64,000 nt of DNA from an uncultured Gammaproteobacteria bacterium. GTDB lineage: Bacteria; Patescibacteriota; Microgenomatia; Levybacterales; UBA12049. The translations under genes were made by a program, and so were the position numbers. The stretch lies in the NCBI GenBank assembly GCA_964537895.1, contig CAZIDK010000002.1, positions 82,684 to 146,683 of the forward strand. The letters run 5' to 3'. The notes beneath the pieces are model-generated. The model saw only the letters and a list, made by a program, of their open reading frames with translations. It had not been told where the DNA came from and did not search any database. Position 1 is the stretch's first letter; the number at the start of each line of letters is the position of its first letter. Of the stretch, positions 3,347-40,621 are shown one piece after another.

Positions 3347-4087
3347 ATGGGCGAAAAAACAGGACATAGTCCTTCACGCAGAGAAATTCCTGCACCAATG
3401 AAGATGGATTTCAAAGATTTTGTGCAAGGAATGAATGCTTTAGGAGATCCAAGAGGCATTTTTGTCGTAGACGAAGACAAATTATTCGTCGCAAGAAGAC
3501 CGGAAACAGTAGTTCCGGGACAAGAATATAGTGTTACCAGACAATATTACAGACCATCGGACAATTTTTCCGCTCACGATCTGAAGGCCGAAATTGAACT
3601 TATTTTTGACGGTAAATCCCCGGCTCGGCTAAAACATGTTCTGTTGGAAGCTAAAAACGAGAGAGACCTCTTCAGCATTAGAGTAGGAGATGGAATAGAA
3701 ATACTCGCTGGAGTAGCAGGTTCCACGCTGGATATTAAATACAAGCCTACGGGAGAATTAGAGAGTGTTGTAATAGCCGGGCCAAACGGAGATCATCAGA
3801 AGCGTAAGTTCACCTGGCAAGCTTTAGAGAAAATGCGGATGGCAGGGGAAGAAACAGCTGCTATTTCAATTATTGCCCGTTCGGATTTTCAAAGAGCGTC
3901 TGTACCGCTTAAAATAGACCCGCATTTTTCTGAGCTGGTTTTAGTTAGTGACTTAGTGAGTAATCCTATGACCAGTAATACAAGACTTGATAGTCCTTGG
4001 ATAAATGCGAATTGGCAAGAATTGCTTCGAATTGACTGGAAACATGGTTTTAACCCCGTTAGTATTCGTGACGCCGTAAGGTTGTAA
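3347..4087 (+). CDS. Hypothetical protein
   Basis: 246 aa ORF with typical coding composition. No recognised motifs. Confidence 0.45.
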   Translation: MGEKTGHSPSRREIPAPMKMDFKDFVQGMNALGDPRGIFVVDEDKLFVARRPETVVPGQEYSVTRQYYRPSDNFSAHDLKAEIELIFDGKSPARLKHVLLEAKNERDLFSIRVGDGIEILAGVAGSTLDIKYKPTGELESVVIAGPNGDHQKRKFTWQALEKMRMAGEETAAISIIARSDFQRASVPLKIDPHFSELVLVSDLVSNPMTSNTRLDSPWINANWQELLRIDWKHGFNPVSIRDAVRL

Positions 4088-6351: not shown

Positions 6352-7044
6352 ATGATAACCATAATCCACGGCGACGACGTCGCAAGCTCAAGAAATTACT
6401 ACGTAGACAAACGGCAGGCATCTCAAAGCCCGGTAATTTTAGATGGCGGTAAGTTTAGCCTTTCGGATTTAATGCAGAGTTTGGAAGGCGGGTCTTTATT
6501 TAATGAAGAAAAAAATATTTTTATTGAGAACTTTTTTTCATCCAAGAAAGCCAACACCAACTTCAAAGAAATCGTTATCTACATTGAAGAACAGGCTTCT
6601 AAAGCAAGTATATTCTTTTGGGAAAATTCCGAATTATCAAAAACAGAATTAACGACTTTTAAAAAAACTACAGCAAAATTATTTAAAATTCCTCAAAATT
6701 TGTTCGGATTTTTAGATAACATAAAACCCGGAAATACAGACAGTATTAAACAATTTCATGAACTGCTTAATCAAACAGCCGAAGAATTAATATTCTTTAT
6801 GATTGTAAGACAATTTAGACTTCTCCTGGCAGTATCGGATCCTGATGCAGAAAATGCAATAGATGAGGTTAAAAGACTTGCTCCCTGGCAAACGGGTAAA
6901 CTTAAAAGTCAGGCAAAGCTTTTCGGGCCGGAAAAATTAATAGCAATATACAAAAGACTGCACGAAATAGATTCCGACAGCAAGACCGGGAAATCGGCAA
7001 CTTCGCTAACCCAAACCATTGACTTTTTCCTCCTCGATTTATAA
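6352..7044 (+). CDS. holA: DNA polymerase III delta subunit-like (short form)
   Basis: N-terminus ITIIHGDD and a C-terminal helical region resemble delta. At 230 aa it is short for the family. Confidence 0.4.
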   Translation: MITIIHGDDVASSRNYYVDKRQASQSPVILDGGKFSLSDLMQSLEGGSLFNEEKNIFIENFFSSKKANTNFKEIVIYIEEQASKASIFFWENSELSKTELTTFKKTTAKLFKIPQNLFGFLDNIKPGNTDSIKQFHELLNQTAEELIFFMIVRQFRLLLAVSDPDAENAIDEVKRLAPWQTGKLKSQAKLFGPEKLIAIYKRLHEIDSDSKTGKSATSLTQTIDFFLLDL

Positions 7045-7053
7045 GATATTGTA

Positions 7054-8436
7054 ATGAATATCGATACAGGTATTTTTAAATCATACGATATCCGCGCAAT
7101 TTACCCCGACCAAATAAACGAACAAAACATAGCTGAAATCATAAAAGCTATTTATAAATTTTTTACCACAAAAATAACTAAAGAAAATTTTACAGTGGCT
7201 TTGGCAAGAGATATGCGTATTTCCTCTCCCGCTTTCTACAAAATTGCAATTGAAACATTAGTATCCATGGGAGCGAACGTTATAGATATGGGTCTTATGT
7301 CTACCCCTACGTTTTATTTTGCTGTATTTAATTATAAATATGATTGCGGAATTCAGATTACTGCTTCTCACAATCCGAAAGAATACAACGGAGCAAAGTT
7401 TGTTATGTATGGACCAAAAGGACTTATCAAAATCGGTAAACAAACCGGCATGGAAGATATAAAAAATTATGCAATTTCGGGCGTTGATTTGCCAACAGAT
7501 AAAAAAGGCACCGTAACTGTAAAAACTCATGTCCTAGAAGACGAGGTTGAGAATGCCGCTAAAATTTTGGGAAATCCGCAAATTAAAAAATTTAAAATAG
7601 TAGCAGATCCTGCAAATGCGATGGGCGGAACGTATATTGATGCGTTCGTAGAAAAATATCCTACGGATTTGGTACGGATGAATTTTGAACTGGATGGCAC
7701 ATTTCCGGTTCACCAGCCGGATCCATTTCAACCAAAAAATCTTGTTGATTTGCAAAAAAGAGTCTTGGAAGAAAAAGCGGATTTAGGCCTTGCCCCCGAC
7801 GGAGACGGAGACAGACTTTTCTTTATCGACGAAAAAGGACAAGCTGTTCCGCCAACAATAATTACAGCTCTTGTAGCCAGAGAACTATTTAAAGAATATC
7901 CGGGATCAATGGTGCTTTTTGATATTAGGTATATCCTTACTCCCAAAAAAATTATTGAAGAAAATGGAGGGAAATATGGAATAACAAAAGTAGGACATGC
8001 GTTTATTACGGAACAAATGGGGAAAACAGGGGCTATATTTGCGGGAGAATCTTCTGCTCATTATTATTTTAAGGCAACCGGTAATGCCGAATCTCAAGTA
8101 ACAATAATGTTAGTCGTACTAAAAGTTTTAGGTGAATTAGGCAAACCATTTTCCGAAGTTGTAAAGGATTTACAAAAAAGCTTTGAATCGGGTGAAATTA
8201 ATTTTAAAGTCTCTAATGCAAAAGATATTATTGAGTCAATTAAAAACGACTACAAAGACGGAGAATTATCGGAACTGGATGGAATTGCAATTTCTTATCC
8301 GACATGGAGATTGAGTGTCAGAACTTCAAATACGGAACCTCTTTTAAGATTAAACGTTGAGGGTTATAATAAGGACGAAATGCAAAAACACAGAGACGAA
8401 TTAATTGATACAATCAAAGCATTGGGACATGAATGA
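7054..8436 (+). CDS. Phosphomannomutase/phosphoglucomutase (alpha-D-phosphohexomutase)
   Basis: Active-site Ser loop TASHNP and the metal-binding motif DGDGDR are both present. Confidence 0.8.
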   Translation: MNIDTGIFKSYDIRAIYPDQINEQNIAEIIKAIYKFFTTKITKENFTVALARDMRISSPAFYKIAIETLVSMGANVIDMGLMSTPTFYFAVFNYKYDCGIQITASHNPKEYNGAKFVMYGPKGLIKIGKQTGMEDIKNYAISGVDLPTDKKGTVTVKTHVLEDEVENAAKILGNPQIKKFKIVADPANAMGGTYIDAFVEKYPTDLVRMNFELDGTFPVHQPDPFQPKNLVDLQKRVLEEKADLGLAPDGDGDRLFFIDEKGQAVPPTIITALVARELFKEYPGSMVLFDIRYILTPKKIIEENGGKYGITKVGHAFITEQMGKTGAIFAGESSAHYYFKATGNAESQVTIMLVVLKVLGELGKPFSEVVKDLQKSFESGEINFKVSNAKDIIESIKNDYKDGELSELDGIAISYPTWRLSVRTSNTEPLLRLNVEGYNKDEMQKHRDELIDTIKALGHE

Positions 8437-9526: not shown

Positions 9527-11800
9527 ATGACTGCCAAATCGAGGTTTGTTGCGTGGTTTTCCGAAGTGGATAAAGAGGACGTAGCGTTAGTCGGAGGGAA
9601 AGGTGCAAATTTAGGTGAAATGACAAAAGCTAAATTTCCAGTCCCCAACGGTTTTATTATAACATCCGAGGCTTACTACGCTTTTATAAGAGAAAACAAT
9701 TTCTCTGTAAAAATAAAGCACCTTTTAGAGACTGCAAATTTTGATAAACCCGATTCCTTATCGCAGGTTTCAACGCATATAAAAAAACTGATAATTGATG
9801 GTAAATTATCAAAGGAATTGGTCGGAGACGTTTTTAGAGCTTACAGTAAGCTTGGGACAGTTTTTGACGACACCCTCGTCGCGGTAAGATCTTCAGCAAC
9901 TGCCGAGGACCTTGCTAATGCCTCATTTGCCGGACAGCAGGAAACATTTTTGAATGTTAAAGGCGAAGCGGTGCTTTTGGAAAAAATTAAAGAAGGCTGG
10001 GCTTCGCTTTTTAATGCCCGGGCACTTTTTTACAGGCACGAGCAGCATTTTGACAATTTAAAAATTGGAATTGCGCTGGTTGTACAGAGAATGGTTGAAT
10101 CTGAAAAATCAGGAATAATGTTTACACTGGATCCTGTTACAAATGATAAATCAAAAATTGTAATTGAGGCAATTTACGGATTAGGGGAATTAATTGTGCA
10201 GGGGCAAGAAAATCCCGACCACTATGAAGTGTTAAAAAACGACTTTTCGATTATTTCTAAAAAAGCGGTATTGCAGAAAAAAATGCTTAAAAAAGTTGGT
10301 GCTAAAAATAAAGAGATTAAACTTACTAAATCCCAAGGCGGACACCAAAAATTGTCGGACAAAGAAATTATCGGATTGGCAAAGTTAGGCGAAAGATTGG
10401 AAAAACATTATTATTTTCCCCAAGATATTGAATGGGCAATTGAAAAAAATAAACTTTTTATTGTTCAAACAAGAGCAGTTACAACCGTAAATGAAAAAAA
10501 GCAAACAAAAAAAGCTATTGATGAAATCGCCAACACATCAAGAATACCGATATTAAAAGGCGATCCGGCAAGTCCGGGAATAGCCGCAGGTCCTGTCAGA
10601 ATTATTAAAAGTGCTAAGGAAATAGGCAAAGTAATGCCCGGAGAAGTTTTAGTTGCGCCTCAAACAAATCCTGATTATGTTCCGGCGATGAAAAAGGCCG
10701 TTGCCATTGTTACGGATAGCGGGGGAAGAACTTCACACGCGGCAATAGTCTCAAGGGAACTCGGAATTCCGGCAATTGTCGGTACCCAAAAGGCAACAAA
10801 AATTTTAAAACAAGGAGAGGTAGTAACCGTAAACGGCACAAAAGGCGAGATTTATAAAGGCGGACACTTAACTTCAAATGTAAACATAAACACAATTAAT
10901 CCCGAAGATTTTATAAAAACCGCTACTAAAGTTTACGTAAACTTGGCGGAACCGGAACTTGCGGAAAAAATCGCACAGCAAAATGTAGACGGAGTAGGAC
11001 TTTTAAGAGCCGAGTTTATGATGGCCGGTATTGGAATTCATCCTAAAAAATTGATCAGGGAGGGAAAAAAACAGCTATTTATCGAAAAACTAGCTAACGA
11101 CTTGGAAATGTTTTGCAAGCCTTTTAACCCGAGGCCGGTTGTTTATAGAGCCTCCGACTTTAAAACAAATGAATACAGATCGCTGATTGGAGGTAGGGAC
11201 TTCGAGCCCGAAGAACCAAATCCGATGCTAGGCTATAGGGGTGTATACCGGTATATTCATGATCCGGAAGTTTTTGAACTGGAGCTTGAAGCGATTAAAA
11301 TTGTCAGGAATAAAAAAGGATACAGAAATTTATGGCTGATGCTTCCTTTTGTAAGAACGGTCAAGGAACTTGAGGAAGTTAAGAAGATTATCAATATTTC
11401 CGGATTGCAGCGTTCCCCTACTTTTAAACTCTGGATGATGGTAGAAATTCCTTCTAACGTGATACTGCTTGAAGATTTCATTAAAGCGGGCATTGACGGA
11501 GTTTCAATCGGCTCTAATGATTTGACAATGCTGCTTTTAGGAACAGACCGGGATAACAGCGAAGTCGCATCGGAATTTAGCGAACTTAATCCTGCTGTGA
11601 TGTGGGCTTTTGAGCGCGTTATAAAAACTGCCCGCAAAACCGGAATTACCGCTTCTATTTGCGGGCAGGCAGTGTCAACATACCCTTTGCTTGTTGAAAA
11701 ATTAGTTTCTTGGGGAGTGACAAGTGTATCCATATCTCCGGACGCAGCCGACAGTACGAGAAAATTAATTTCCGAAACTGAGAAAAAAGTGATAAATTAA
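9527..11800 (+). CDS. ppsA: Phosphoenolpyruvate synthase (pyruvate, water dikinase)
   Basis: N-terminal ATP-grasp motif GGKGANLGEM, phosphohistidine domain GGRTSHAAIVSRELGIPAIVG, and a C-terminal PEP-utilising TIM barrel. 757 aa. Confidence 0.8.
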   Translation: MTAKSRFVAWFSEVDKEDVALVGGKGANLGEMTKAKFPVPNGFIITSEAYYAFIRENNFSVKIKHLLETANFDKPDSLSQVSTHIKKLIIDGKLSKELVGDVFRAYSKLGTVFDDTLVAVRSSATAEDLANASFAGQQETFLNVKGEAVLLEKIKEGWASLFNARALFYRHEQHFDNLKIGIALVVQRMVESEKSGIMFTLDPVTNDKSKIVIEAIYGLGELIVQGQENPDHYEVLKNDFSIISKKAVLQKKMLKKVGAKNKEIKLTKSQGGHQKLSDKEIIGLAKLGERLEKHYYFPQDIEWAIEKNKLFIVQTRAVTTVNEKKQTKKAIDEIANTSRIPILKGDPASPGIAAGPVRIIKSAKEIGKVMPGEVLVAPQTNPDYVPAMKKAVAIVTDSGGRTSHAAIVSRELGIPAIVGTQKATKILKQGEVVTVNGTKGEIYKGGHLTSNVNINTINPEDFIKTATKVYVNLAEPELAEKIAQQNVDGVGLLRAEFMMAGIGIHPKKLIREGKKQLFIEKLANDLEMFCKPFNPRPVVYRASDFKTNEYRSLIGGRDFEPEEPNPMLGYRGVYRYIHDPEVFELELEAIKIVRNKKGYRNLWLMLPFVRTVKELEEVKKIINISGLQRSPTFKLWMMVEIPSNVILLEDFIKAGIDGVSIGSNDLTMLLLGTDRDNSEVASEFSELNPAVMWAFERVIKTARKTGITASICGQAVSTYPLLVEKLVSWGVTSVSISPDAADSTRKLISETEKKVIN

Positions 11801-15312: not shown

Positions 15313-17334
15313 ATGAAATTTAAGTTAGTTTCAGATTTTAAGCCTACAGGCGACCAGCCCCAAGCCATAGAAAAACTTACCAAAGGACTTTTGAATAACT
15401 ACAAAAATCAGGTTCTTTTGGGGGTTACGGGAAGCGGAAAAACTTTTACCATGGCAAACGTTATTGAAAAAGTGCAGAAACCAACCTTGGTTATTTCTCA
15501 CAATAAAACCCTGGCGGCGCAGCTTTATCAGGAATTTAGGGATTTTTTTCCCAACAACTCCGTTTGCTATTTTGTTTCTTATTACGATTATTACCAGCCC
15601 GAAGCCTATATCCCCCAAAGCGATACTTATATAGAAAAAGAGGTTCAGATAAATGAGGAGATAGATAAACTTAGACTTTCTGCAACTACAAACCTTCTAA
15701 CAAGAAAGGATGTCATAGTTGTAGCCAGCGTTTCCTGTATTTACAATCTTGGTTCCCCAATTGAGTACGGAAAATTTGTTCTTGAGCTTAAAACAGGCGT
15801 TAAGCTTGACCAGAAAGCTATTCTATTACGGCTTACCGATTTGCAATACGAAAGAAACGATTATGCTTTTGAAAGGGGAAGTTTTAGAATTAGAGGTGAG
15901 GACATAGACTTATTTCCGGCATATTTAGATTCAGGTATAAGAATTTCCATAACAAACGGGAAAATAAAAAAAATAGTTGAATTTGATGCTTTAACCGGAG
16001 ACCCGCATAAAATGCTCGATTCTACGGTAATATACCCTGCAAAACATTACATGACTGATCCCATTACTTATCAGGATGTATTCCCGCAAATTAGAGAAGA
16101 TTTATCTAAACAAGTAAAAATGTTTAAAGGGCAAGGAAAGCTTTTGGAAGCGCAGAGGATTAGTCAACGAACAAACTATGACTTGGAGATGATTCAGGAG
16201 TTAGGGTTTGTTAACGGAATCGAAAACTACTCAAGATATTTTGACGGCCGAAAACAGGGGCAGCCCCCCTACTCTCTCCTAAATTATTTTGATGCCTGCG
16301 CTTCCGATTGGCTGACGATTATTGACGAGTCTCATATTACAATTCCGCAGATTAGGGGTATGTATAATGGGGATAAGGCCAGGAAAGAAACCTTAATCGA
16401 TTATGGCTTTAGGCTTCCTTCTGCGCTTGATAACCGACCCTTAAGGTTTGAAGAATTTATGCGAAAAATTAATAAAACCGTTTACGTCAGCGCTACTCCC
16501 GACGAATATGAATTATCCCTTGCTCAGTCAACCTACGAGGTCGGACGCACGGGACCTCGTAGGTTGGAATCTGCAATTGTAGAGCAATTAATAAGGCCGA
16601 CAGGACTTGTAGACCCTAAAGTTGTCGTCAAGCCGACAAAAGGACAAGTCGAAGACTTAATAACGGAAATCAAAAAGCGGGTTAGGAAAAAACAAAGAGT
16701 TTTAGTTACCACTCTTACTAAAAGAATGGCGGAAGACTTGTCTTCGTATCTTGAGGAAAGAGATGTAAAAGTTTCATATCTTCATTCGGATATTGAAACC
16801 CTAAAAAGACAGGACGTTTTAGATAGGCTAAGGCATGGAGAATGCGATGTTTTAGTCGGAATTAACCTCTTAAGGGAAGGTTTGGATTTGCCAGAAGTCG
16901 CTCTTGTTGCGATTTTAGACGCTGATAAAGAGGGATTTTTACGAAGCCGTACTGCTTTAATTCAAACTATGGGAAGAGCGGCCAGGAACATAGATTCACA
17001 AGTTATTATGTATGCCGACAATATGACAGGTTCTATGAAGGCGGCAATTGAAGAAGTTGAAAGAAGGCGTGAAGTTCAGCTTGCATATAATAAGAAACAC
17101 AATATAACTCCAAAAACCATTGAAAAAATTATCAGAACAAAATTGATCGACCAGGAACAGCGCCAGGACGAAATAAATTATTTACTGACGCTTTCTAAAA
17201 AAGAAGTTCTTTTACCGGACGATAAAGAAAAATTAATTAAAAGACTATCTAAAGAAATGCGTGAAGCCGCAAAGGAGCTGGACTTTGAAACCGCAACAAT
17301 CTTGCGAGACCAAATAAAACTCCTCAAGCAGTGA
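15313..17334 (+). CDS. uvrB: Excinuclease ABC subunit B
   Basis: Walker A GSGKT, helicase motifs, C-terminal UVR domain. 673 aa. Confidence 0.9.
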   Translation: MKFKLVSDFKPTGDQPQAIEKLTKGLLNNYKNQVLLGVTGSGKTFTMANVIEKVQKPTLVISHNKTLAAQLYQEFRDFFPNNSVCYFVSYYDYYQPEAYIPQSDTYIEKEVQINEEIDKLRLSATTNLLTRKDVIVVASVSCIYNLGSPIEYGKFVLELKTGVKLDQKAILLRLTDLQYERNDYAFERGSFRIRGEDIDLFPAYLDSGIRISITNGKIKKIVEFDALTGDPHKMLDSTVIYPAKHYMTDPITYQDVFPQIREDLSKQVKMFKGQGKLLEAQRISQRTNYDLEMIQELGFVNGIENYSRYFDGRKQGQPPYSLLNYFDACASDWLTIIDESHITIPQIRGMYNGDKARKETLIDYGFRLPSALDNRPLRFEEFMRKINKTVYVSATPDEYELSLAQSTYEVGRTGPRRLESAIVEQLIRPTGLVDPKVVVKPTKGQVEDLITEIKKRVRKKQRVLVTTLTKRMAEDLSSYLEERDVKVSYLHSDIETLKRQDVLDRLRHGECDVLVGINLLREGLDLPEVALVAILDADKEGFLRSRTALIQTMGRAARNIDSQVIMYADNMTGSMKAAIEEVERRREVQLAYNKKHNITPKTIEKIIRTKLIDQEQRQDEINYLLTLSKKEVLLPDDKEKLIKRLSKEMREAAKELDFETATILRDQIKLLKQ

Positions 17335-21267: not shown

Positions 21268-21340
21268 AAACTTAACGAATCTACGGGTATCCTAGCAAAT
21301 TGTTGAATTATAGTCAATGCTCTGGTATGATTTTTTTGCT

Positions 21341-23194
21341 ATGAGTAACCTGGAAATAGTAAAGCTTTTTAGAAATGTTGCAGCCGCTTACTCAATAAAA
21401 GATGAAAAAAAATTCCGGTTCCAAATTATTGCATATCAAAAAGCCGCGGACACCGTTTCTAATTTAACTTCGGAAATTATTGACTTCTATAAAGATAATA
21501 AACTGAACACTCTTCCCGGTATTGGAGTAACCATAAAATCTCATCTTGAAGAACTATTTAAAACAAATAAGGTAAAGCAGTTTGAATGGGCTTTGCACGG
21601 AATTCCCGAAGCTGTTTTTCCCTTATTAGATATTCCCTCATTTGGTCCCAAAAAAGTATATAGGCTGGTCAAAGAATTTCATCTTAAAAACTCTAAAACC
21701 GTGCTTGAAGATCTTGAAAAAATTGCAAAGCAGGGGAAAATTGCCAGATTAGCTAGTTTTGGAGATAAATCTCAAAGTGACATTCTTAGAGCAATTGCCG
21801 AGTTCAGACTTGGAAAAGGAAAAACAACCAGAATGACACTCCCATATGCAATGGAGGTAGCCGATAAAGTAGTTTCTTATTTAAAGCAGTCAAAAGACGT
21901 AGTTCGCGCAGAACCTTTGGGAAGTTTAAGACGCAGAATGCCCACAGTCGGCGACATAGATATAGCCGTAGCCACAGATAACCCAAAAGGCGTAATTGAA
22001 TATTTTACCTCATATCCGTATAAAGAACGCATTATTGAAAAAGGCGATACAACCTCCTCAATCTTAGTTTCCGGAGGAAAGCAGGTGGACCTTATGACAC
22101 AGCCCCCGGAGGCTTTTGGGTCGCTTTTACAGCACTTTACAGGCAGCAAAAACCATAACATTCACTTAAGGGAATTCGCTCTCAAGAAAGGATTATCTCT
22201 ATCGGAATATGGCATCAGACGGAAAACGCCCGCCCCGCTTCGCTTGGCGAGGCCGGAGGAAAATGCCCGCCCTGAGCGAGGCCCCGCACCGTCTGGTGCA
22301 GGGCGAGGCCGAAGGGGGAAATGGAAAATGGAAAATTTTTCTACAGAAGAACAATTTTATCATGCTGTCGGCCTAGAGTGGATTCCGCCGGAAATAAGAG
22401 AGAATACGGGCGAGATTGAGTTGGCTTCTCAAAAAAAACTCCCTAAGCTCGTTGAGTTACCGGATATCAAGGGGGACCTGCATATTCACACAAGCTTTCC
22501 CATAGAACCAAGCCATGATTTGGGACAAAACACTATTTTAGAAATGCTGGAAAAAGCAAGACTTTTAAAATATGCGTATTTAGGATTTTCCGAACACAAT
22601 CCCAGTATTTCTAAACATAATTCAAATCAAACTTACTCAATTTTGGCAAGAAGAAATGAAGAAATTGAACATATTTTATTGAGTAATAAAGATGTTCGTA
22701 TATTAAAATTACTCGAAATTGATATATTACCTCACGGAAATCTTGCTATAGATGATAAATCTCTGAATCTCTTAGATGGCGCTATAGTTTCTATTCATAG
22801 CACATTCAACATGAACAAGACCGACATGACGGAAAGAGTTTTAAAGGGTTTGTCGCATAAAAAGGCTAAGATACTCGCTCACCCAACGGGCAGAATGTTA
22901 AATGAAAGACAAGGTTACGAATTGGATTGGAGCAAAATATTTGAATTTTGCAAAAAAAATAATAAGGCCTTGGAAATTAACAGCTGGCCGGGCAGATTAG
23001 ATTTACCCGATATGGTAATTAGAATGGCTGTAGAAGCCAAGGTTAAAATGGTAATAAATACAGACAGTCACGCGGTTTCCCAAATGGAGCTTATGAAGTA
23101 CGGCATTGCAATGGCAAGGAGAGGCTGGGCAACAAAAGATGACATACTCAATACTTTATCGTATAATGAATTCTCCGAGTGGTTAAGAAAATAA
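21341..23194 (+). CDS. polX: DNA polymerase X family protein with C-terminal PHP phosphoesterase domain
   Basis: N-terminal pol-beta-like HhH and palm domains, then LHIHTSFP and later His/Asp PHP motifs. An alternative start lies at 21317. Contains a GC-rich insertion that stays in frame at 22224-22318. Confidence 0.75.
   Translation: MSNLEIVKLFRNVAAAYSIKDEKKFRFQIIAYQKAADTVSNLTSEIIDFYKDNKLNTLPGIGVTIKSHLEELFKTNKVKQFEWALHGIPEAVFPLLDIPSFGPKKVYRLVKEFHLKNSKTVLEDLEKIAKQGKIARLASFGDKSQSDILRAIAEFRLGKGKTTRMTLPYAMEVADKVVSYLKQSKDVVRAEPLGSLRRRMPTVGDIDIAVATDNPKGVIEYFTSYPYKERIIEKGDTTSSILVSGGKQVDLMTQPPEAFGSLLQHFTGSKNHNIHLREFALKKGLSLSEYGIRRKTPAPLRLARPEENARPERGPAPSGAGRGRRGKWKMENFSTEEQFYHAVGLEWIPPEIRENTGEIELASQKKLPKLVELPDIKGDLHIHTSFPIEPSHDLGQNTILEMLEKARLLKYAYLGFSEHNPSISKHNSNQTYSILARRNEEIEHILLSNKDVRILKLLEIDILPHGNLAIDDKSLNLLDGAIVSIHSTFNMNKTDMTERVLKGLSHKKAKILAHPTGRMLNERQGYELDWSKIFEFCKKNNKALEINSWPGRLDLPDMVIRMAVEAKVKMVINTDSHAVSQMELMKYGIAMARRGWATKDDILNTLSYNEFSEWLRK
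22224..22318. repeat. GC-rich (about 70% GC) insertion that stays in frame inside polX
   Basis: Three gcgaggcc units and an imperfect palindrome gccctg...cagggc. Left-flank ggaaaacg and an inside-edge ggaaaatg are direct repeats; three ggaaaat heptamers lie on the right. Adds about 25 aa (PAPLRLARPEENARPERGPAPSGAGRGRRG) in the linker between the EYG and TEE motifs. Confidence 0.5.
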
Positions 23195-27063: not shown

Positions 27064-28505
27064 AACTAAACAGCTTAAACATTAAAGAGGCTAAGGAAGG
27101 GTTAAAAAAAAGGGATTTTTCTTCTTTTGAATTAACCAGAGCTTGTCTTGACCAAATAAAAAAGCTCGAAGGAAAATTGAATGCTTTTGTCACGATTACG
27201 GAAAACGAAGCTTTGGAACAAGCGAAAGAAGCCGACATTGAATTAGCTTCGCAAGGCGACGCCTTGGAGGCTAAGCCGCTTTTAGGAATTCCCATTGCTA
27301 TTAAAGATAATTTTTCAACGCTTGGCATTAAAACAACTGCGTCAAGTAAGGTGTTGGAAGATTATATCCCGCCATACGATGCAACAGTTGTTAAAAAATT
27401 AAAAGATGCGGGAATGGTTCTCTTAGGAAAAACCAATATGGACGCTTGGGCTCACGGCTCCTCTACGGAAACTTCTGATTTTGGAGTAACCAGAAATCCC
27501 TGGAACATAAACCATCTGCCCGGAGGCTCTTCGGGAGGGTCTGCGGCTGCAGTTGCAGCGGATGAAGTCATCGCCGCAATCGGTTCCGAGACAGCAGGCT
27601 CAATAAGACAACCTGCCAGCTGGTGCGGTGTTGTGGGACTAAAACCAACATATGGAAGAGTCAGCAGATACGGAGTTATAGCAATGGGTTCATCTTTAGA
27701 TTCTCCGGGCCCGATAACCAAAACCGTTGAGGACAGTGCTTTAATTTTGGAAGTTCTAGCAGGAAAGGACGAAAAAGACGCCACCACTTCCCCATTGCCG
27801 GTAGGGAATTACTCACAAAAGTTAAATAAAAATATTAAAGAATTGAGAGTGGGAATTTCCAGAGAGTACTTTATCGACGGGATTGATAAAGAAGTTAAAG
27901 AAACAGTTGAAAGGGCTGCTAAAGCATTAGAAAAATTTGGTGCAAAAGTTGAAAATATCAAACTATTCGATCCAAAATATGCGATTGATGTCTACACAAT
28001 AATTCAAAGATCCGAAGTCTCATCCAACTTGGCTAGATACGACGGAATTAGGTACGGAAACGGACGCGATTATTTTAAAGATGAGGCAAAGCGAAGAATT
28101 ATGTTTGGTACCTATGCCCTTTCATCCGGATATTACGACCAGTATTACAATAAAGCCCAGCAGGTAAGAACTGTAATCATCAATGATTTTAATAAAGCTT
28201 TTGAAAAAGTTGATGTAATAATTGCTCCCACAAGTCCTTCTCTGGCCTTACCGGTGGGGGCCACTAAAGATGCAACTATGTTTGGAGAAATTGCAGACGT
28301 ATTGGTAGAACCGTCTTCAATCGCAGGGCTAGCGGGTATAAATATCCCCGTAGGGTTTTCGAAATCGGGTCTTCCGATTGGAATGCAGATAATCGGACCG
28401 CAGTTTAGCGAAACGTTAGTTCTTTCTGTTGCGCATCAATATGAAGTAAATACTCAAAATGAGAATCGGAGAAAACTTAGGCCGAATTTACAATTTAAAA
28501 TTTGA
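27060..28505 (+). CDS. gatA: Asp/Glu-tRNA amidotransferase subunit A (amidase signature)
   Basis: Amidase signature motif GGSSGGSAAAVAA plus the Ser-cisSer-Lys catalytic context. Confidence 0.9.
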   Translation: MKLNSLNIKEAKEGLKKRDFSSFELTRACLDQIKKLEGKLNAFVTITENEALEQAKEADIELASQGDALEAKPLLGIPIAIKDNFSTLGIKTTASSKVLEDYIPPYDATVVKKLKDAGMVLLGKTNMDAWAHGSSTETSDFGVTRNPWNINHLPGGSSGGSAAAVAADEVIAAIGSETAGSIRQPASWCGVVGLKPTYGRVSRYGVIAMGSSLDSPGPITKTVEDSALILEVLAGKDEKDATTSPLPVGNYSQKLNKNIKELRVGISREYFIDGIDKEVKETVERAAKALEKFGAKVENIKLFDPKYAIDVYTIIQRSEVSSNLARYDGIRYGNGRDYFKDEAKRRIMFGTYALSSGYYDQYYNKAQQVRTVIINDFNKAFEKVDVIIAPTSPSLALPVGATKDATMFGEIADVLVEPSSIAGLAGINIPVGFSKSGLPIGMQIIGPQFSETLVLSVAHQYEVNTQNENRRKLRPNLQFKI

Positions 28506-28584
28506 AATTTATAATCAAACTCAAATGTTTTAAAATTGAAACATTGAAAATTCATTGAAAATTTAAAATTGGTAATTAAAAATT

Positions 28585-29961
28585 ATGAATAAATATACGC
28601 CAGTAATCGGCCTTGAAGTGCACGTTGAGTTAAAAACCACCAGCAAAATGTTTTGTGCTTGCTCTGCTGACTACTTTGGCAAAAAGCCTAACACCCATAC
28701 TTGCCCCGTTTGCCTTGGTCTTCCTGGCGCACTTCCCTATCCAAATAAAAAAGCAATTGAATGGTGCGTAATGATTGGACTTGCATTAAATTGTAAGATT
28801 CCCCTATTTTCCAAATTCGACAGAAAAAATTATTTTTATCCTGACCTTGCCAAAGGTTACCAAATTTCACAGTATGACAAACCATTTTGCCAAAATGGAT
28901 GGATAGAATTACAAAACGGCAAAAGAATTGGAATTACCAGGGTCCACATGGAAGAAGATACCGGTAAATTAATTCATGAAAAAGTTGACGGAGAAAATGT
29001 AAGCTTAATCGATTTTAACCGAAGCGGAGTCCCGCTTGTTGAAATAGTTACAGAACCGGATTTTGAAACGGCTGATGAAGTAAAAGAATACCTGCAAAAA
29101 CTTCAGCAAATTGTCAGATACCTTGGGGTTTCCAATGCCGACATGGAAAAAGGAGACATGAGATTGGAACCTAACATTTCACTTCGTGAAATCAGCAATC
29201 AGCAATCACCTGCCCGCAATGCTTCGCAAAGCGATGCAGGCGGGGCAATCAGCAATCAATTACCACCCTATAAAGTTGAAGTAAAAAACATAAATTCGTT
29301 TGCTTTTGTATCAAAAGCGATTGATTACGAAATAAAAAGACAAACAGAAATTTTGGAAAAAGGAAAAACTCCCGTACAGGAAACAAGGGGATTTGTTGAA
29401 AAAACCTCGTCGACAGTTACGCAAAGAGTTAAGGAGGAGGCATCAGACTACAGATATTTCCCAGAACCGGATATTCCTCCAATCCGTTGGCTTGAATCTC
29501 AAATTTTAAATCTTAAATCTCAAATGCCGGAGCTTCCGGATGCAAAACTTGATAGGTTTCAAAAACAATACTCACTCTCCCAATACGACAGCGGCCTATT
29601 AACAAGAATAGCTGAGCTTGCAAGTTTTTTTGAAGAAGCTGTTACTTTGGGCAAAGAACACAACCTTATTCCTAAACAAATCGCCAATTTTATTATCAAT
29701 CGAAAAATTAACCTTGATGAAATTCTGCCCGCAGAGCTTGTTAAAAAGGTTGTTTCTGCAAGTAAAACCGATGATATAAACGAAGAAGAGTTAGTAAAAA
29801 TCATTAAAAAAATATTGAAAGATAATCCGAAAATCGCAGAAGATTATAAAAAAGGCAAGGATTCTGTCATCCAGTTTGCCATTGGACAAGTTATGTATAT
29901 AATAAGAAAGAAAATAGATACGGATATTTTGACAAAACTAATAAAGGAGGAATTAAAATAA
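28585..29961 (+). CDS. gatB: Asp/Glu-tRNA amidotransferase subunit B
   Basis: N-terminus YTPVIGLEVHVEL; C-terminal YqeY-like tail. Contains a GC-rich insertion that stays in frame at 29190-29259. Confidence 0.85.
   Translation: MNKYTPVIGLEVHVELKTTSKMFCACSADYFGKKPNTHTCPVCLGLPGALPYPNKKAIEWCVMIGLALNCKIPLFSKFDRKNYFYPDLAKGYQISQYDKPFCQNGWIELQNGKRIGITRVHMEEDTGKLIHEKVDGENVSLIDFNRSGVPLVEIVTEPDFETADEVKEYLQKLQQIVRYLGVSNADMEKGDMRLEPNISLREISNQQSPARNASQSDAGGAISNQLPPYKVEVKNINSFAFVSKAIDYEIKRQTEILEKGKTPVQETRGFVEKTSSTVTQRVKEEASDYRYFPEPDIPPIRWLESQILNLKSQMPELPDAKLDRFQKQYSLSQYDSGLLTRIAELASFFEEAVTLGKEHNLIPKQIANFIINRKINLDEILPAELVKKVVSASKTDDINEEELVKIIKKILKDNPKIAEDYKKGKDSVIQFAIGQVMYIIRKKIDTDILTKLIKEELK
29190..29259. 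repeat. GC-rich palindromic insertion flanked by caatcag heptamer repeats, in frame inside gatB
   Basis: Left flank atcagcaatcagcaatca, core cctgcccgcaatgcttcgcaaagcgatgcaggcgggg, right flank caatcagcaatcaa. Adds about 25 aa (ISNQQSPARNASQSDAGGAISNQ) between conserved GatB blocks. Confidence 0.5.
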
Positions 29962-40244: not shown

Positions 40245-40280
40245 TTTGCCTAAACGCTCTAAATTTCATAGAATAAGGTA

Positions 40281-40322
40281 CTGCCGGAGTAACTCAGGGA
40301 ACGGAGCAAAGCGAGTTCGCCT
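40281..40322 (+). pseudogene. tRNA 5'-half-like fragment 1
   Basis: gccggagtaactcagggaacggagcaaagcgagttcgcctgc, a degenerate acceptor and D-arm. Shares its start (gccgnagtaactcag) and its end (ttcgcctgc) with fragment 2. Confidence 0.4.
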
Positions 40323-40440
40323 GCTTGATCGCGTCAGACGCGACTTGACAGACGCGACGAGCAAGTGTTTCGTCCCAGCATTTTCTTGCAAATTTTGATA
40401 AAATTTGCTTAGAAATGCGGGATCCCGTAAATCTAAGCTT

Positions 40441-40479
40441 GCCGAAGTAACTCAGCGGTAGAGTAGCTCTTTCGCCTGC
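40441..40479 (+). pseudogene. tRNA 5'-half-like fragment 2
   Basis: gccgaag-ta-actc-agcggta-gagt-a-gctct-ttcgcct aligns position by position with nt 1-37 of the adjacent tRNA-Thr and breaks off after the anticodon-loop position. Confidence 0.5.
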
Positions 40480-40487
40480 CCGCCATC

Positions 40488-40559
40488 GCCAACATAGCTC
40501 AGTGGCAGAGCAGCTGTTTCGTAAACAGCAGGTCGTTGGTTCGATCCCAACTGTTGGCT
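40488..40559 (+). tRNA. tRNA-Thr (anticodon CGT)
   Basis: GCCAACA/TGTTGGC acceptor, D-stem GCTC/GAGC, anticodon stem GCTGT/ACAGC with loop TTCGTAA, T-arm GTTGG-TTCGATC-CCAAC. Confidence 0.8.
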
Positions 40560-40582
40560 CAGGCAAGCAAGATTTACTGGGA

Positions 40583-40621
40583 TAAACAGCAGGTCCTCGG
40601 TTCAATCCCGAGAGACGGCTC
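40583..40621 (+). pseudogene. tRNA 3'-half-like fragment 1
   Basis: aacagcaggtc matches tRNA-Thr from position 38 on. The T-arm CTCGG-TTCAATC-CCGAG has compensatory changes. Preceded by gatttactgggata. Confidence 0.5.

Follow-up and report, generated by a model that had tools for sequence, protein, structure and literature searches.

A GC-rich hairpin in the gatB gene of a Levybacteria-like genome, a probable copy of a small mobile repeat of many bacterial phyla

The gatB gene on a 64,000-nt stretch of contig CAZIDK010000002.1 (GenBank assembly GCA_964537895.1, positions 82,684–146,683, forward strand; hereafter, the window) contains a short GC-rich palindrome between heptanucleotide repeats. 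The locus raises the question of what this sequence is: a local product of the repeats around it, a useful extension of the protein, or DNA that came from elsewhere. The first-pass annotation of the window had reported a GC-rich palindrome amid caatcag repeats, in frame in gatB, and we confirmed it at positions 29209–29244. These 36 nt are most probably (about three chances in four) a copy of a very small non-autonomous hairpin repeat, which is mobile, spread over many bacterial phyla, and tolerated here as a loop extension of the protein. Loci compared in the analysis (syntenic relatives, scan loci, and IMG/VR contigs) have L-numbers and GatB homologues have P-numbers; features of the window are listed in Table 1.

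The insert in GatB and the repeats around it

The window had a GC content of about 36% and represented a Levybacteria-like stretch of Patescibacteria; the best homologues of its GatB came from 'Candidatus Levybacteria' and 'Patescibacteria group' assemblies. The gatB product contained GatB_N and GatB_Yqey domains and matched a solved GatB (3h0l_B) with an E-value of 1e-117. The core of the insert had 67% GC, and few 36-nt stretches of the window reached 64% or more. Folded as single-stranded DNA, it gave −12.8 kcal/mol (z = −3.4 against shuffles). There was a single match to CCTGCCCGCAATGCTTCGCAAAGCGATGCAGGCGGG in the window, even with up to three mismatches allowed (0 expected). The 3′ boundary lies at 29244 or 29245, that is, the core is CCTGCCCGCAATGCTTCGCAAAGCGATGCAGGCGGG optionally plus one G. 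The core was codon-aligned and stop-free, with PARNASQSDAGG as residues 209–220 within the peptide ISNQQSPARNASQSDAGGAISNQ. The insert was also present in a relative with 95% identical gatB DNA, whose two assemblies, ENA ERZ27245806 and Logan SRR6945354, are independent; it is therefore no assembly artefact.

An alignment of the 120 best homologues was used to place the insert within the protein. The spacing between the ISL and LPPYKVEVKN motifs was 25 residues in the window vs. 7 in the commonest homologues (e.g., RKEGEKE), and the window segment aligned with the loop of Aquifex GatB (RPKGSKEFGT) as a 19-residue gap. The earlier figure of about 25 added residues is thus correct as a loop length, but not as a gain, which is 18–19 residues net. 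In an AlphaFold model (58-sequence alignment, mean predicted local distance difference test score, pLDDT, of 83.6), residues 203–230 formed a coil between strands 192–202 and 231–234, and pLDDT was below 50 at residues 207–221; the predicted structure places the segment in a disordered loop between two strands, in keeping with the surface loop that the first-pass annotation had anticipated. Among the 120 homologues, only P0001 and P0002 carried PARNASQSDAGG; it was limited to the window and its 96% identical relative. The segment was not conserved and was limited to the lineage of the window; equal length and sequence in distant orthologues, expected of a conserved lineage-specific insertion and named in the first-pass annotation as contrary to its reading, were not found, and that reading stands.

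Elsewhere in Levybacteria, the same loop contained in-frame inserts of NQQSAISNQ, EHVAGSKNHEPRATR, SPSGRGQGEGNW, ILASEASPESKKDAGQASMTN, and TNTTNTTN types, several of them palindromic in DNA; the NQQSAISNQ type is translated (CAATCAG)n. Insert types were scattered on the tree of the remaining GatB protein, and sister sequences occurred with and without an insert. The GatB loop is an insertion hotspot. Unrelated in-frame inserts were found at this loop in L004, L005, L006, L007, and L146, one type having GTAGCG...CGCTAC arms. The P0007 and P0014 genes were 92% identical in DNA, yet the replacement took in their entire loop and, upstream, about 25 nt of higher divergence, which suggests allele exchange through recombination. 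In JGI (Joint Genome Institute) metagenomes, no match to the element beside the YKVEVK motif was found in other GatB lineages.

The 13-mer CAATCAGCAATCA had two exact occurrences in the window, 29196–29208 and 29246–29258, abutting the core on both sides. A period-7 array of 2.7 copies was detected by Tandem Repeats Finder (TRF) to the left of the core, and the left and right arrays were in register at a separation of 57 nt (19 codons). When the core was deleted in silico, the sequence became ATCAG CAATCAG CAATCAG CAATCAG CAATCAA with a perfect array phase. The loop DNA of L003 (GatB 80% identical) was AAG CAATCAG CAATCAG CAATCAG CAATCAG TTA, i.e., four clean units with the core absent. Because this array is coreless and the deletion restores the phase, the flanking heptamers represent an older microsatellite and no duplication of the target. 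In diverged form, the (CAATCAG)n array was common to several clades. Judged by these comparisons, the microsatellite predates the core, and the 36 nt were added inside the array in one lineage. Two origins had been proposed for the caatcag repeats in the first-pass annotation. A target-site duplication is ruled out by the coreless array already present in L003, and most family copies have no flanking repeat; the slippage alternative fits, the heptamer microsatellite being present before the core in relatives that carry the array without it. The flanks consist of tandem 7-nt units whose number varies among relatives, as in heptanucleotide simple sequence repeats (SSRs), and loops of the NQQSAISNQ type vary in length.

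The spacer between gatA and gatB (28532–28584) contained an AAAATTG-like period-7 array of about 8 units, largely kept in L004. In L001, a gene of the 23S_rRNA_IVP family (PF05635), encoding a four-helix bundle of 123 aa, was found there (9633–10004); it also occurred between gatA and gatB in L146 (2633–3004). The two lineages are separate, the site is equivalent to approximately 28505–28585 of the window, and the N-terminus of GatB was altered. The L001 gene was flanked by inverted repeats TAGCTCGTAG / CTACGAGCTA. The window, L003, L004, and L147 did not have this gene, so that it looks like a small mobile cassette. The Levybacteria genome L005 contained a Y1_Tnp (PF01797) gene adjoining dnaE (15565–16209) and a GATase_3 gene (6781–7611, GatD-like amidotransferase) with a 16-residue in-frame insert.

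The hairpin family within and beyond the window

The polX-like gene of the window contained related DNA with the layout GGAAAAC / 30 nt / GGAAAAT / 52 nt / GGAAAT GGAAAAT GGAAAAT. Its product had 27–28 extra residues relative to L003 and L004, which were also found in the 98% identical L001 orthologue. Compared with L004, the gain was exactly 81 nt within an A-rich degenerate GGAAAAT-like run; the run of L004 had no GC-rich material, and the 30-nt element was missing in both L003 and L004. The gatB core and the first polX piece had 19 of 26 ungapped bases in common (GCCCGC NNN GCTTCGC NNN GCGA N GC), which, together with covariance model scores of 60 and 40 bits, bears out the earlier proposal that the polX insert is a second member of the family. 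Between the window and L001, 6 of 81 positions differed in the insert vs. 2.6% in the whole gene, i.e., it changed about three times faster. A covariance model of 71 distinct copies from other genomes matched in three places of the window only, gatB (60.2 bits, E = 1.6e-13) and the two polX pieces, all of them intragenic; E-values of this model are rough. No further convincing copies were found by blastn-short in the window and L001–L007, and the covariance model gave no matches in syntenic loci of other Levybacteria. Three strict period-7 arrays were present in the window vs. 0.25 expected, and two of the three abutted the element.

The 19 bases common to the gatB and polX copies, spanning 26 positions and fitted exactly by the first polX piece, were used as a pattern to scan one genome per species of 185,579 species. 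At least 120 loci with 125 matches were listed; among these, about 110 loci contained true copies, extending beyond the 26-position pattern to the full 36-nt or 30-nt consensus, and about 9–11 were chance matches in high-GC genomes with no extension past the pattern. Three variants were recognized: V1 (36 nt), CCYGCCCGC AAY GCTTCGC RTA GCGATGC RGGCGGG; V2 (30 nt, polX type), GCCCGCCCCGCTTCGCGGAGCGAGGCCGGG; and V3, CCCGCCCGCCTTGCTTCGCAACGCGAAGCGGGCAGG. The commonest 36-mer was identical in at least 19 loci; the gatB copy of the window was one base off it and identical to the L032 copy. A family of small elements tolerated as in-frame insertions, which the first-pass annotation had suggested from the two genes, thus has about 110 further loci in many phyla, and we infer its mobility from distribution, presence/absence, and nesting. 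In other loci, the covariance model found many more diverged copies, up to four per 8 kb (180 matches in 0.7 Mb of loci, both strands counted).

Host groups were counted by record titles among the loci listed; these third-party taxon labels are partly unreliable. About 45 loci were from Patescibacteria (Microgenomates, Parcubacteria, Saccharibacteria-labelled, Gribaldobacteria), 27 from Verrucomicrobiota, Kiritimatiellia, and Lentisphaerae (PVC, the Planctomycetes–Verrucomicrobia–Chlamydiae group), 6 from Nitrospirota/Thermodesulfovibrionia, 6 of Desulfobacterota type, 2 from Bdellovibrionales, 9 labelled Gammaproteobacteria, 2 from Melioribacter, 1 from Terriglobales, and 13 unclassified; 9 were chance matches in high-GC genomes. 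The L012 locus was labelled Saccharibacteria, yet its RpoA was 80–85% identical to that of Nomurabacteria-labelled loci. The cross-phylum spread is real, since copies were found in Verrucomicrobia contigs of several hundred kb with 55–66% GC and in complete 'Deltaproteobacteria' chromosomes.

The ends of the element in the 71 distinct sequences were CCYGCC... and ...GGCGGG. The fold supported by covariation was CCYGC. CGC N NN GC [TTC] GC NN N GCG .. GCRGG CGGG. At positions free of the scan pattern, pair 11–21 was AU in 29, CG in 12, UA in 6, and GC in 5 sequences; pair 12–20 was CG in 31 and UA in 22, and the outer pair 3–30 was UA in 22, CG in 16, and UG in 12. The covariation score was 0.177; shuffles gave 0.087, none of 500 reaching the observed value, and slid partners gave no more than 0.072. 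The minimum-free-energy fold, with a tcgc-aaa-gcga inner stem, was rejected: its covariation was weaker than that of the TTC-triloop fold. Of the two stems named in the first reading, covariation therefore retains cctgc/gcagg, and tcgc-aaa-gcga gives way to the family inner stem NNGC-TTC-GCNN. A hairpin is supported by these compensatory changes, although covariation in a palindrome would equally fit a symmetric double-strand binding site.

Among the matches listed, 77 of 125 copies were located in long stop-free spans. The frame of PARNASHSDAGG was used by 38 of them, that of PPASLREALRAG (opposite strand) by 18, and the other four frames by 21 (chi-square p = 3e-14). The peptide of the favoured frame, PARNAS(H/Q)SDAGG, is small, polar, flexible, and stop-free. 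Host genes encoded ribosomal proteins S2, S9, and S11, NusB, the C-terminal domain of GyrA, GrpE, an ArsA-type ATPase, a class I tRNA synthetase, a thioredoxin/FTR (ferredoxin–thioredoxin reductase) fusion with the element in the linker, and a class II-like ribonucleotide reductase with the element inside the barrel domain. In four related Nomurabacteria-like loci (RpoA 80–85% identical), the presence of the element differed: 12 residues were added to S11 in L012 only; for S9, L012 and L078 had the element, L060 had a shortened remnant, and L091 had none; GrpE contained it in L091 only; and the RpoA linker was found with or without it. All four copies of L012 were in the PARNA... frame, and one old copy stayed in frame despite a 3-nt indel. 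Once inserted, the sequence seems free to decay. Nested copies (element within element) were found in L021, L067, and L102. In L050, a 36-nt copy (3479–3514) abutted the tmRNA gene (3513–3930), with an overlap of about 2 nt in model coordinates. In the Verrucomicrobia loci L030 and L045, a T-arm/CCA-like sequence directly followed the copy; a tRNA or tmRNA context was rejected for these copies, neither gene being called there.

No matches to the element were found in the plasmid reference collection, and the phage reference collection gave one chance partial match only. Among 18 stretches from IMG/VR, one was a chance match of high GC; phages are no obvious reservoir, since the rest were mostly one Desulfobacterota-type variant inside a larger repeat. 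In the viral-labelled IMG/VR contigs L129, L133, L139, and L142, an element variant formed the core of the repeat CTCTGTGTCC [element] TCTGTGTCCTCTGTGAGAG, present 3–5 times per contig. Rfam families at the gathering threshold gave tRNA, tmRNA, and unrelated matches in the window and 18 loci, none of them on the element; a permissive Rfam scan of 29150–29300 gave only a chance mir-122 match (E = 0.95). The DNA and peptide strings of the element were found in no paper of the searchable open-access literature, and open-access texts on the candidate phyla radiation (CPR) or MITEs (miniature transposable elements with inverted repeats), on REPs (repetitive extragenic palindromes) or Verrucomicrobia, and on in-frame palindromes yielded analogues only. 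The hairpin, which looks like a tiny mobile element, has apparently not been described before.

Table 1. Positions of the hairpin copies, their host genes, and the adjoining repeats in the window
Feature	Position	Strand	Basis or remarks
polX-like gene	21317..23194	+	Open reading frame (ORF); HHH_8 and DNA_pol_B_thumb domains in orthologues
GGAAAAT-type heptamer array around and between polX copies	22221..22336	+	Degenerate, element-free version in L004
30-nt element, variant V2, GCCCGCCCCGCTTCGCTTGGCGAGGCCGGA, in frame in polX	22228..22257	+	Covariance model, 40.5 bits, E = 2.6e-8
Second, rearranged V2-like copy, 24 extra nt at the apex	22265..22316	+	Covariance model, 14.3 bits, E = 0.23 (weak; outer arms aligned); belongs to the 81-nt gain over L004
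gatB coding sequence (458 aa), element host	28585..29961	+	ORF; homologues with PF02934 and PF02637, named GatB in the source
Variable GatB loop, residues 201–225, REISNQQSPARNASQSDAGGAISNQ	29185..29259	+	Between strands 192–202 and 231–234; homologue alignment
Left heptamer microsatellite, AAATCAG CAATCAG CAATCA	29189..29208	+	TRF; uninterrupted (CAATCAG)x4 in relative L003
36-nt GC-rich hairpin, variant V1, CCTGCCCGCAATGCTTCGCAAAGCGATGCAGGCGGG	29209..29244	+	Encodes GatB residues 209–220, PARNASQSDAGG
Right heptamer microsatellite, G CAATCAG CAATCAA	29245..29259	+	Deletion of the 36 nt brings it into phase with the left part

Three other stretches of the window were of note. A perfect palindrome with 11-bp arms, CCTACGAGGTC GGACGCACGG GACCTCGTAGG, was found in frame at 16533–16564 in the ORF 15313–17334, which, from reading its translation, we take to be UvrB-like; it translates as LAQS TYEVGRTGPRRLE SAIVEQLIRPTG. 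This looks like a third in-frame GC-rich palindromic insert of the window, belonging to a different family with CTAC...GTAG ends. In the region 40280–40620, a tRNA-Thr gene (40488–40560) was located between sequences resembling the 5′ and 3′ halves of another tRNA, which were not called by ARAGORN or Rfam; just upstream in this stretch, CGCCTGCCCGCC was similar to the 5′ arm of the element. The GC content of the window decreased from about 38% to about 31% beyond approximately 42 kb (42000–64000).

Insertion sites and explanations of the spread

Base composition became random right outside the 36 nt in 84 full-length copies, with T avoided at −1 and A at +1. Exact flanking direct repeats of at least 7 nt were found at 12 of 127 copies vs. 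1.65% of control positions; among non-coding V1/V3 copies, 3 of 35 had a flanking repeat of at least 6 nt. Period-7 tandem repeats were present in the flanks of 9 of 127 copies vs. 0.6% of controls (an 11-fold enrichment), and no other period from 4 to 12 was enriched. The heptamer units differed from site to site (GTGAACC, GTTGTCA, GAGTTTT, GAGTGAC, TATTCAC, ATAATTC, AAAATCG, GTGATTT), and two-sided arrays were in phase across the element. In L021, L067, L102, L039, L093, and L115, copies occupied the tip of a second palindrome or the interior of a second copy. Flank complementarity of at least 7 bp was found in 5 of 116 copies vs. 0.7% of controls, the numbers being small.

According to the explanation that we prefer, one copy of the mobile hairpin repeat entered an existing (CAATCAG)n array in an ancestor of the window's lineage, where the microsatellite would already have extended a solvent-exposed β-hairpin loop of GatB. 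As the element is 36 nt long (30 nt in the sister variant), the frame was kept. The essential enzyme would tolerate the insertion as a disordered lengthening of its loop, because the frame is kept, there is no stop codon, and the peptide is small, polar, and flexible; the insertion would be carried as selfish or neutral DNA, probably without a function for GatB. The polX gene would have taken up two copies of the 30-nt variant likewise, in a heptamer array within a loop. A defined unit would thus be inserted in a transposition-like manner, usually without target duplication, with single-stranded or slipped DNA (heptamer repeats and tips of other hairpins) as the preferred target, and compact gene-dense genomes would keep only in-frame, stop-free insertions in loops, linkers, or termini. 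The heptamer link may also be read the other way, the hairpin stalling the polymerase and breeding 7-nt slippage beside itself; the array-first order is favoured at the gatB and polX sites, because the arrays are empty in L003 and L004.

Several points weigh against this explanation. No conserved target motif was found in the flanks of the 84 full-length copies, and 76 of 127 copies lacked any flanking direct repeat of at least 4 nt; with mostly no target duplication and no motif, nothing points to a known chemistry of transposition. When the 2,684 ORFs in the 8-kb neighbourhoods of 120 loci were clustered all against all, no transposase or other mobilising gene recurred. Near-identity across phyla is hard to square with ordinary vertical descent, or occasional horizontal transfer, if the element is non-autonomous, and at the 19 positions fixed by the scan pattern conservation exists by construction. 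Copy numbers per genome come from fragments only (three in the 64-kb window, at most four per 8 kb elsewhere). The flanks of the window, when used to scan JGI metagenomes for a base-exact empty gatB allele, gave no matches, and translation of the insert in GatB is presumed from its open frame. The ORF clustering gave housekeeping families and a family of 23S_rRNA_IVP-like four-helix bundles (5 loci); the latter was rejected as a linked mobiliser, since it did not adjoin the element and was about as frequent as the background of these genomes would give.

The same absence of a mobilising gene near any copy, of end duplications in most copies, and of a target motif is what would be expected if no enzyme were involved and copies spread through errors of replication or repair (template switches at stalled forks, or gene conversion between sites that carry the hairpin), with heptamers and hairpin tips as stall sites. 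Such error copying also fits the tie of the element to period-7 repeats, which are prone to slippage, and its weak tie to the tips of other palindromes, and recombinational allele exchange at the GatB loop does occur for another insert type. However, we regard it as unlikely: template switching would leave ragged ends, whereas at more than 100 unrelated sites the element stops sharply at 36 or 30 nt, near-identical copies in different phyla are unable to template one another, and the compensatory changes of subfamilies point to the hairpin being under selection in propagating copies. The maintenance of the hairpin by such changes, under a cross-phylum constraint far tighter than that of a decaying parasite, would also suit a useful nucleic-acid signal retained by hosts for protein binding, RNA processing or stability, or replication and segregation. 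Such roles have been proposed for REPs, the nearest analogues (PMC3733652); four sense-orientation copies are present in one ribosomal-protein operon, and one copy adjoins a tmRNA gene. A retained signal is nevertheless quite improbable, since the same genes differ in copy presence between close relatives, copies decay after insertion (the polX copy of L001 and the diverged copies of L012), occur in both orientations, match no Rfam family, and are inconsistently positioned relative to genes.

It is very improbable that GatB (and PolX) gained in the insert an adaptive, lineage-specific extension selected for a protein function, with an incidental DNA palindrome. In favour of this are the open, in-frame state of the insert, which two sampled relatives have kept without change, and the longer loop of many Levybacteria. 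The distribution of the family contradicts it: the 36 nt are found in every frame, outside coding DNA, and within dozens of proteins that are unrelated. Moreover, only one GatB lineage has the insert, it is predicted to be disordered, and sister lineages have entirely different inserts at this loop. A local origin by slippage or fold-back synthesis, for which the site inside a slippage-prone array speaks, with a chance likeness to polX, is refuted by the identical 36-mer in L032 and its one-nt-off version in at least 19 loci of other phyla; an assembly artefact is contradicted by the presence of the element in three independent assemblies. We give these last two practically no credence.

If the insert is a copy of a mobile hairpin repeat, as we prefer to read it, one 36-base sequence wrote the same dozen residues into proteins of many uncultivated bacteria, namely ribosomal proteins, gyrase, ribonucleotide reductase, enzymes that charge tRNA, and polymerases for repair, and selfish DNA within protein-coding genes, so far a Rickettsia curiosity, reaches the CPR and beyond. 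This would account for a class of inserts, of low complexity or rich in GC, that have been puzzling in proteins of metagenome-assembled genomes, provide a marker of recent insertion and for strain typing, and caution against reading such inserts as adaptive domain features. It also raises the questions of what moves a 36-nt hairpin, what causes its cross-phylum conservation, and what ties it mechanistically to heptanucleotide repeats. A bolder version, which we advance only tentatively, is that of a new class of ultra-small mobile DNA, near-identical in at least five phyla, free of duplication, target motif, and linked transposase, and moved by an unrecognised, widely shared machinery or a broad-host vector into single-stranded loops (e.g., slipped heptamer repeats and hairpin tips), thereby writing 10–12-residue peptides (PARNASHSDAGG and variants) into core proteins of the CPR. 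If true, this might help to explain the over-representation of period-7 repeats in bacteria.

Comparison with known repeats

Rickettsia palindromic elements (RPEs), reportedly presented by Ogata et al. in 2000 as 'selfish DNA in protein-coding genes', are similar to the element in being palindromic, in frame in essential genes as an extra surface peptide, non-coding themselves, without obvious end duplication, and found in reduced genomes. RPEs are approximately 100–150 bp long, restricted to Rickettsia, and AT-rich like their hosts. In contrast, our element is 36 or 30 nt long, GC-rich in AT-rich hosts, and near-identical across phyla; a sequence relationship is not expected. It is in frame and translatable as RPEs are, but it does not share their length or their restriction to Rickettsia. 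In behaviour, RPEs are the closest to the element, and in size, REPs are; it is a member of neither.

REP/REPIN sequences (REPIN, REP doublet forming a hairpin), which are mobilised by RAYT, the REP-associated Y1 tyrosine transposase, are imperfect palindromes of 20–40 nt, one end of which bears a GTAG or CGTC tetranucleotide (Di Nocera et al. 2013, PMC3733652), and some of them are intragenic, notably in replication, repair, and tRNA-synthetase genes (PMC3733652). The element has in common with them the size and imperfect palindromy, many copies, the absence of coding capacity, and a hairpin with conserved mismatches. Neither its ends nor the adjacent flanks have a GTAG/CGTC tag, and RAYT adjoined no copy in the 8-kb neighbourhoods, which were the extent of this search. 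REPs are species- or genus-specific and mostly extragenic, whereas the element is cross-phylum, with 77 of the 125 copies listed in open frames.

MITEs such as Correia/NEMIS, RUP, ERIC, and Nezha (reviewed in PMC10969869) resemble the element in being non-autonomous, palindromic, dispersed, and sometimes fused in frame; they are 70–300 bp long, with the terminal inverted repeats of a parent insertion sequence (IS) and a fixed target duplication. The element was rejected as a MITE: it is 30–36 nt long, without a fixed duplication, and no larger element with its ends was found in the loci examined. Ends of the IS200/IS605 type (palindrome-associated transposable elements, PATE) would fit the absence of duplication, but the element is unlike them, because its flanks have no conserved tetra- or pentanucleotide target. 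Mobile GC clusters of fungal and yeast mitochondria and other 'coding palindromes' of organelles (PMC8811140, PMC6649704) are also short and GC-rich, spread in AT-rich compact genomes, and can be inside coding sequences; the fungal clusters are a functional analogue of the element in organelles. They differ in being non-bacterial and in having other sequences and lengths; some organelle cases need translational bypass, whereas the element is read through in frame.

Heptanucleotide SSRs are over-represented in bacteria, which is attributed to polymerase slippage, and include the short tandemly repeated repetitive (STRR) sequences of cyanobacteria (PMC4692102); TAACTGA repeats are a further heptamer case (PMC4679880). 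The (CAATCAG)n and (GGAAAAT)n flanks are ordinary period-7 microsatellites of this kind, varying in number between relatives. Known heptamer SSRs are mostly intergenic, whereas the arrays of the window are located in coding loops, where their steps keep the frame, and such arrays are 11-fold enriched by the element. To our knowledge, heptamer repeats have not been linked earlier to an embedded conserved hairpin. The element is a small non-autonomous palindromic repeat, set apart from the known ones by its near-identity across phyla and its tie to heptanucleotide repeats.

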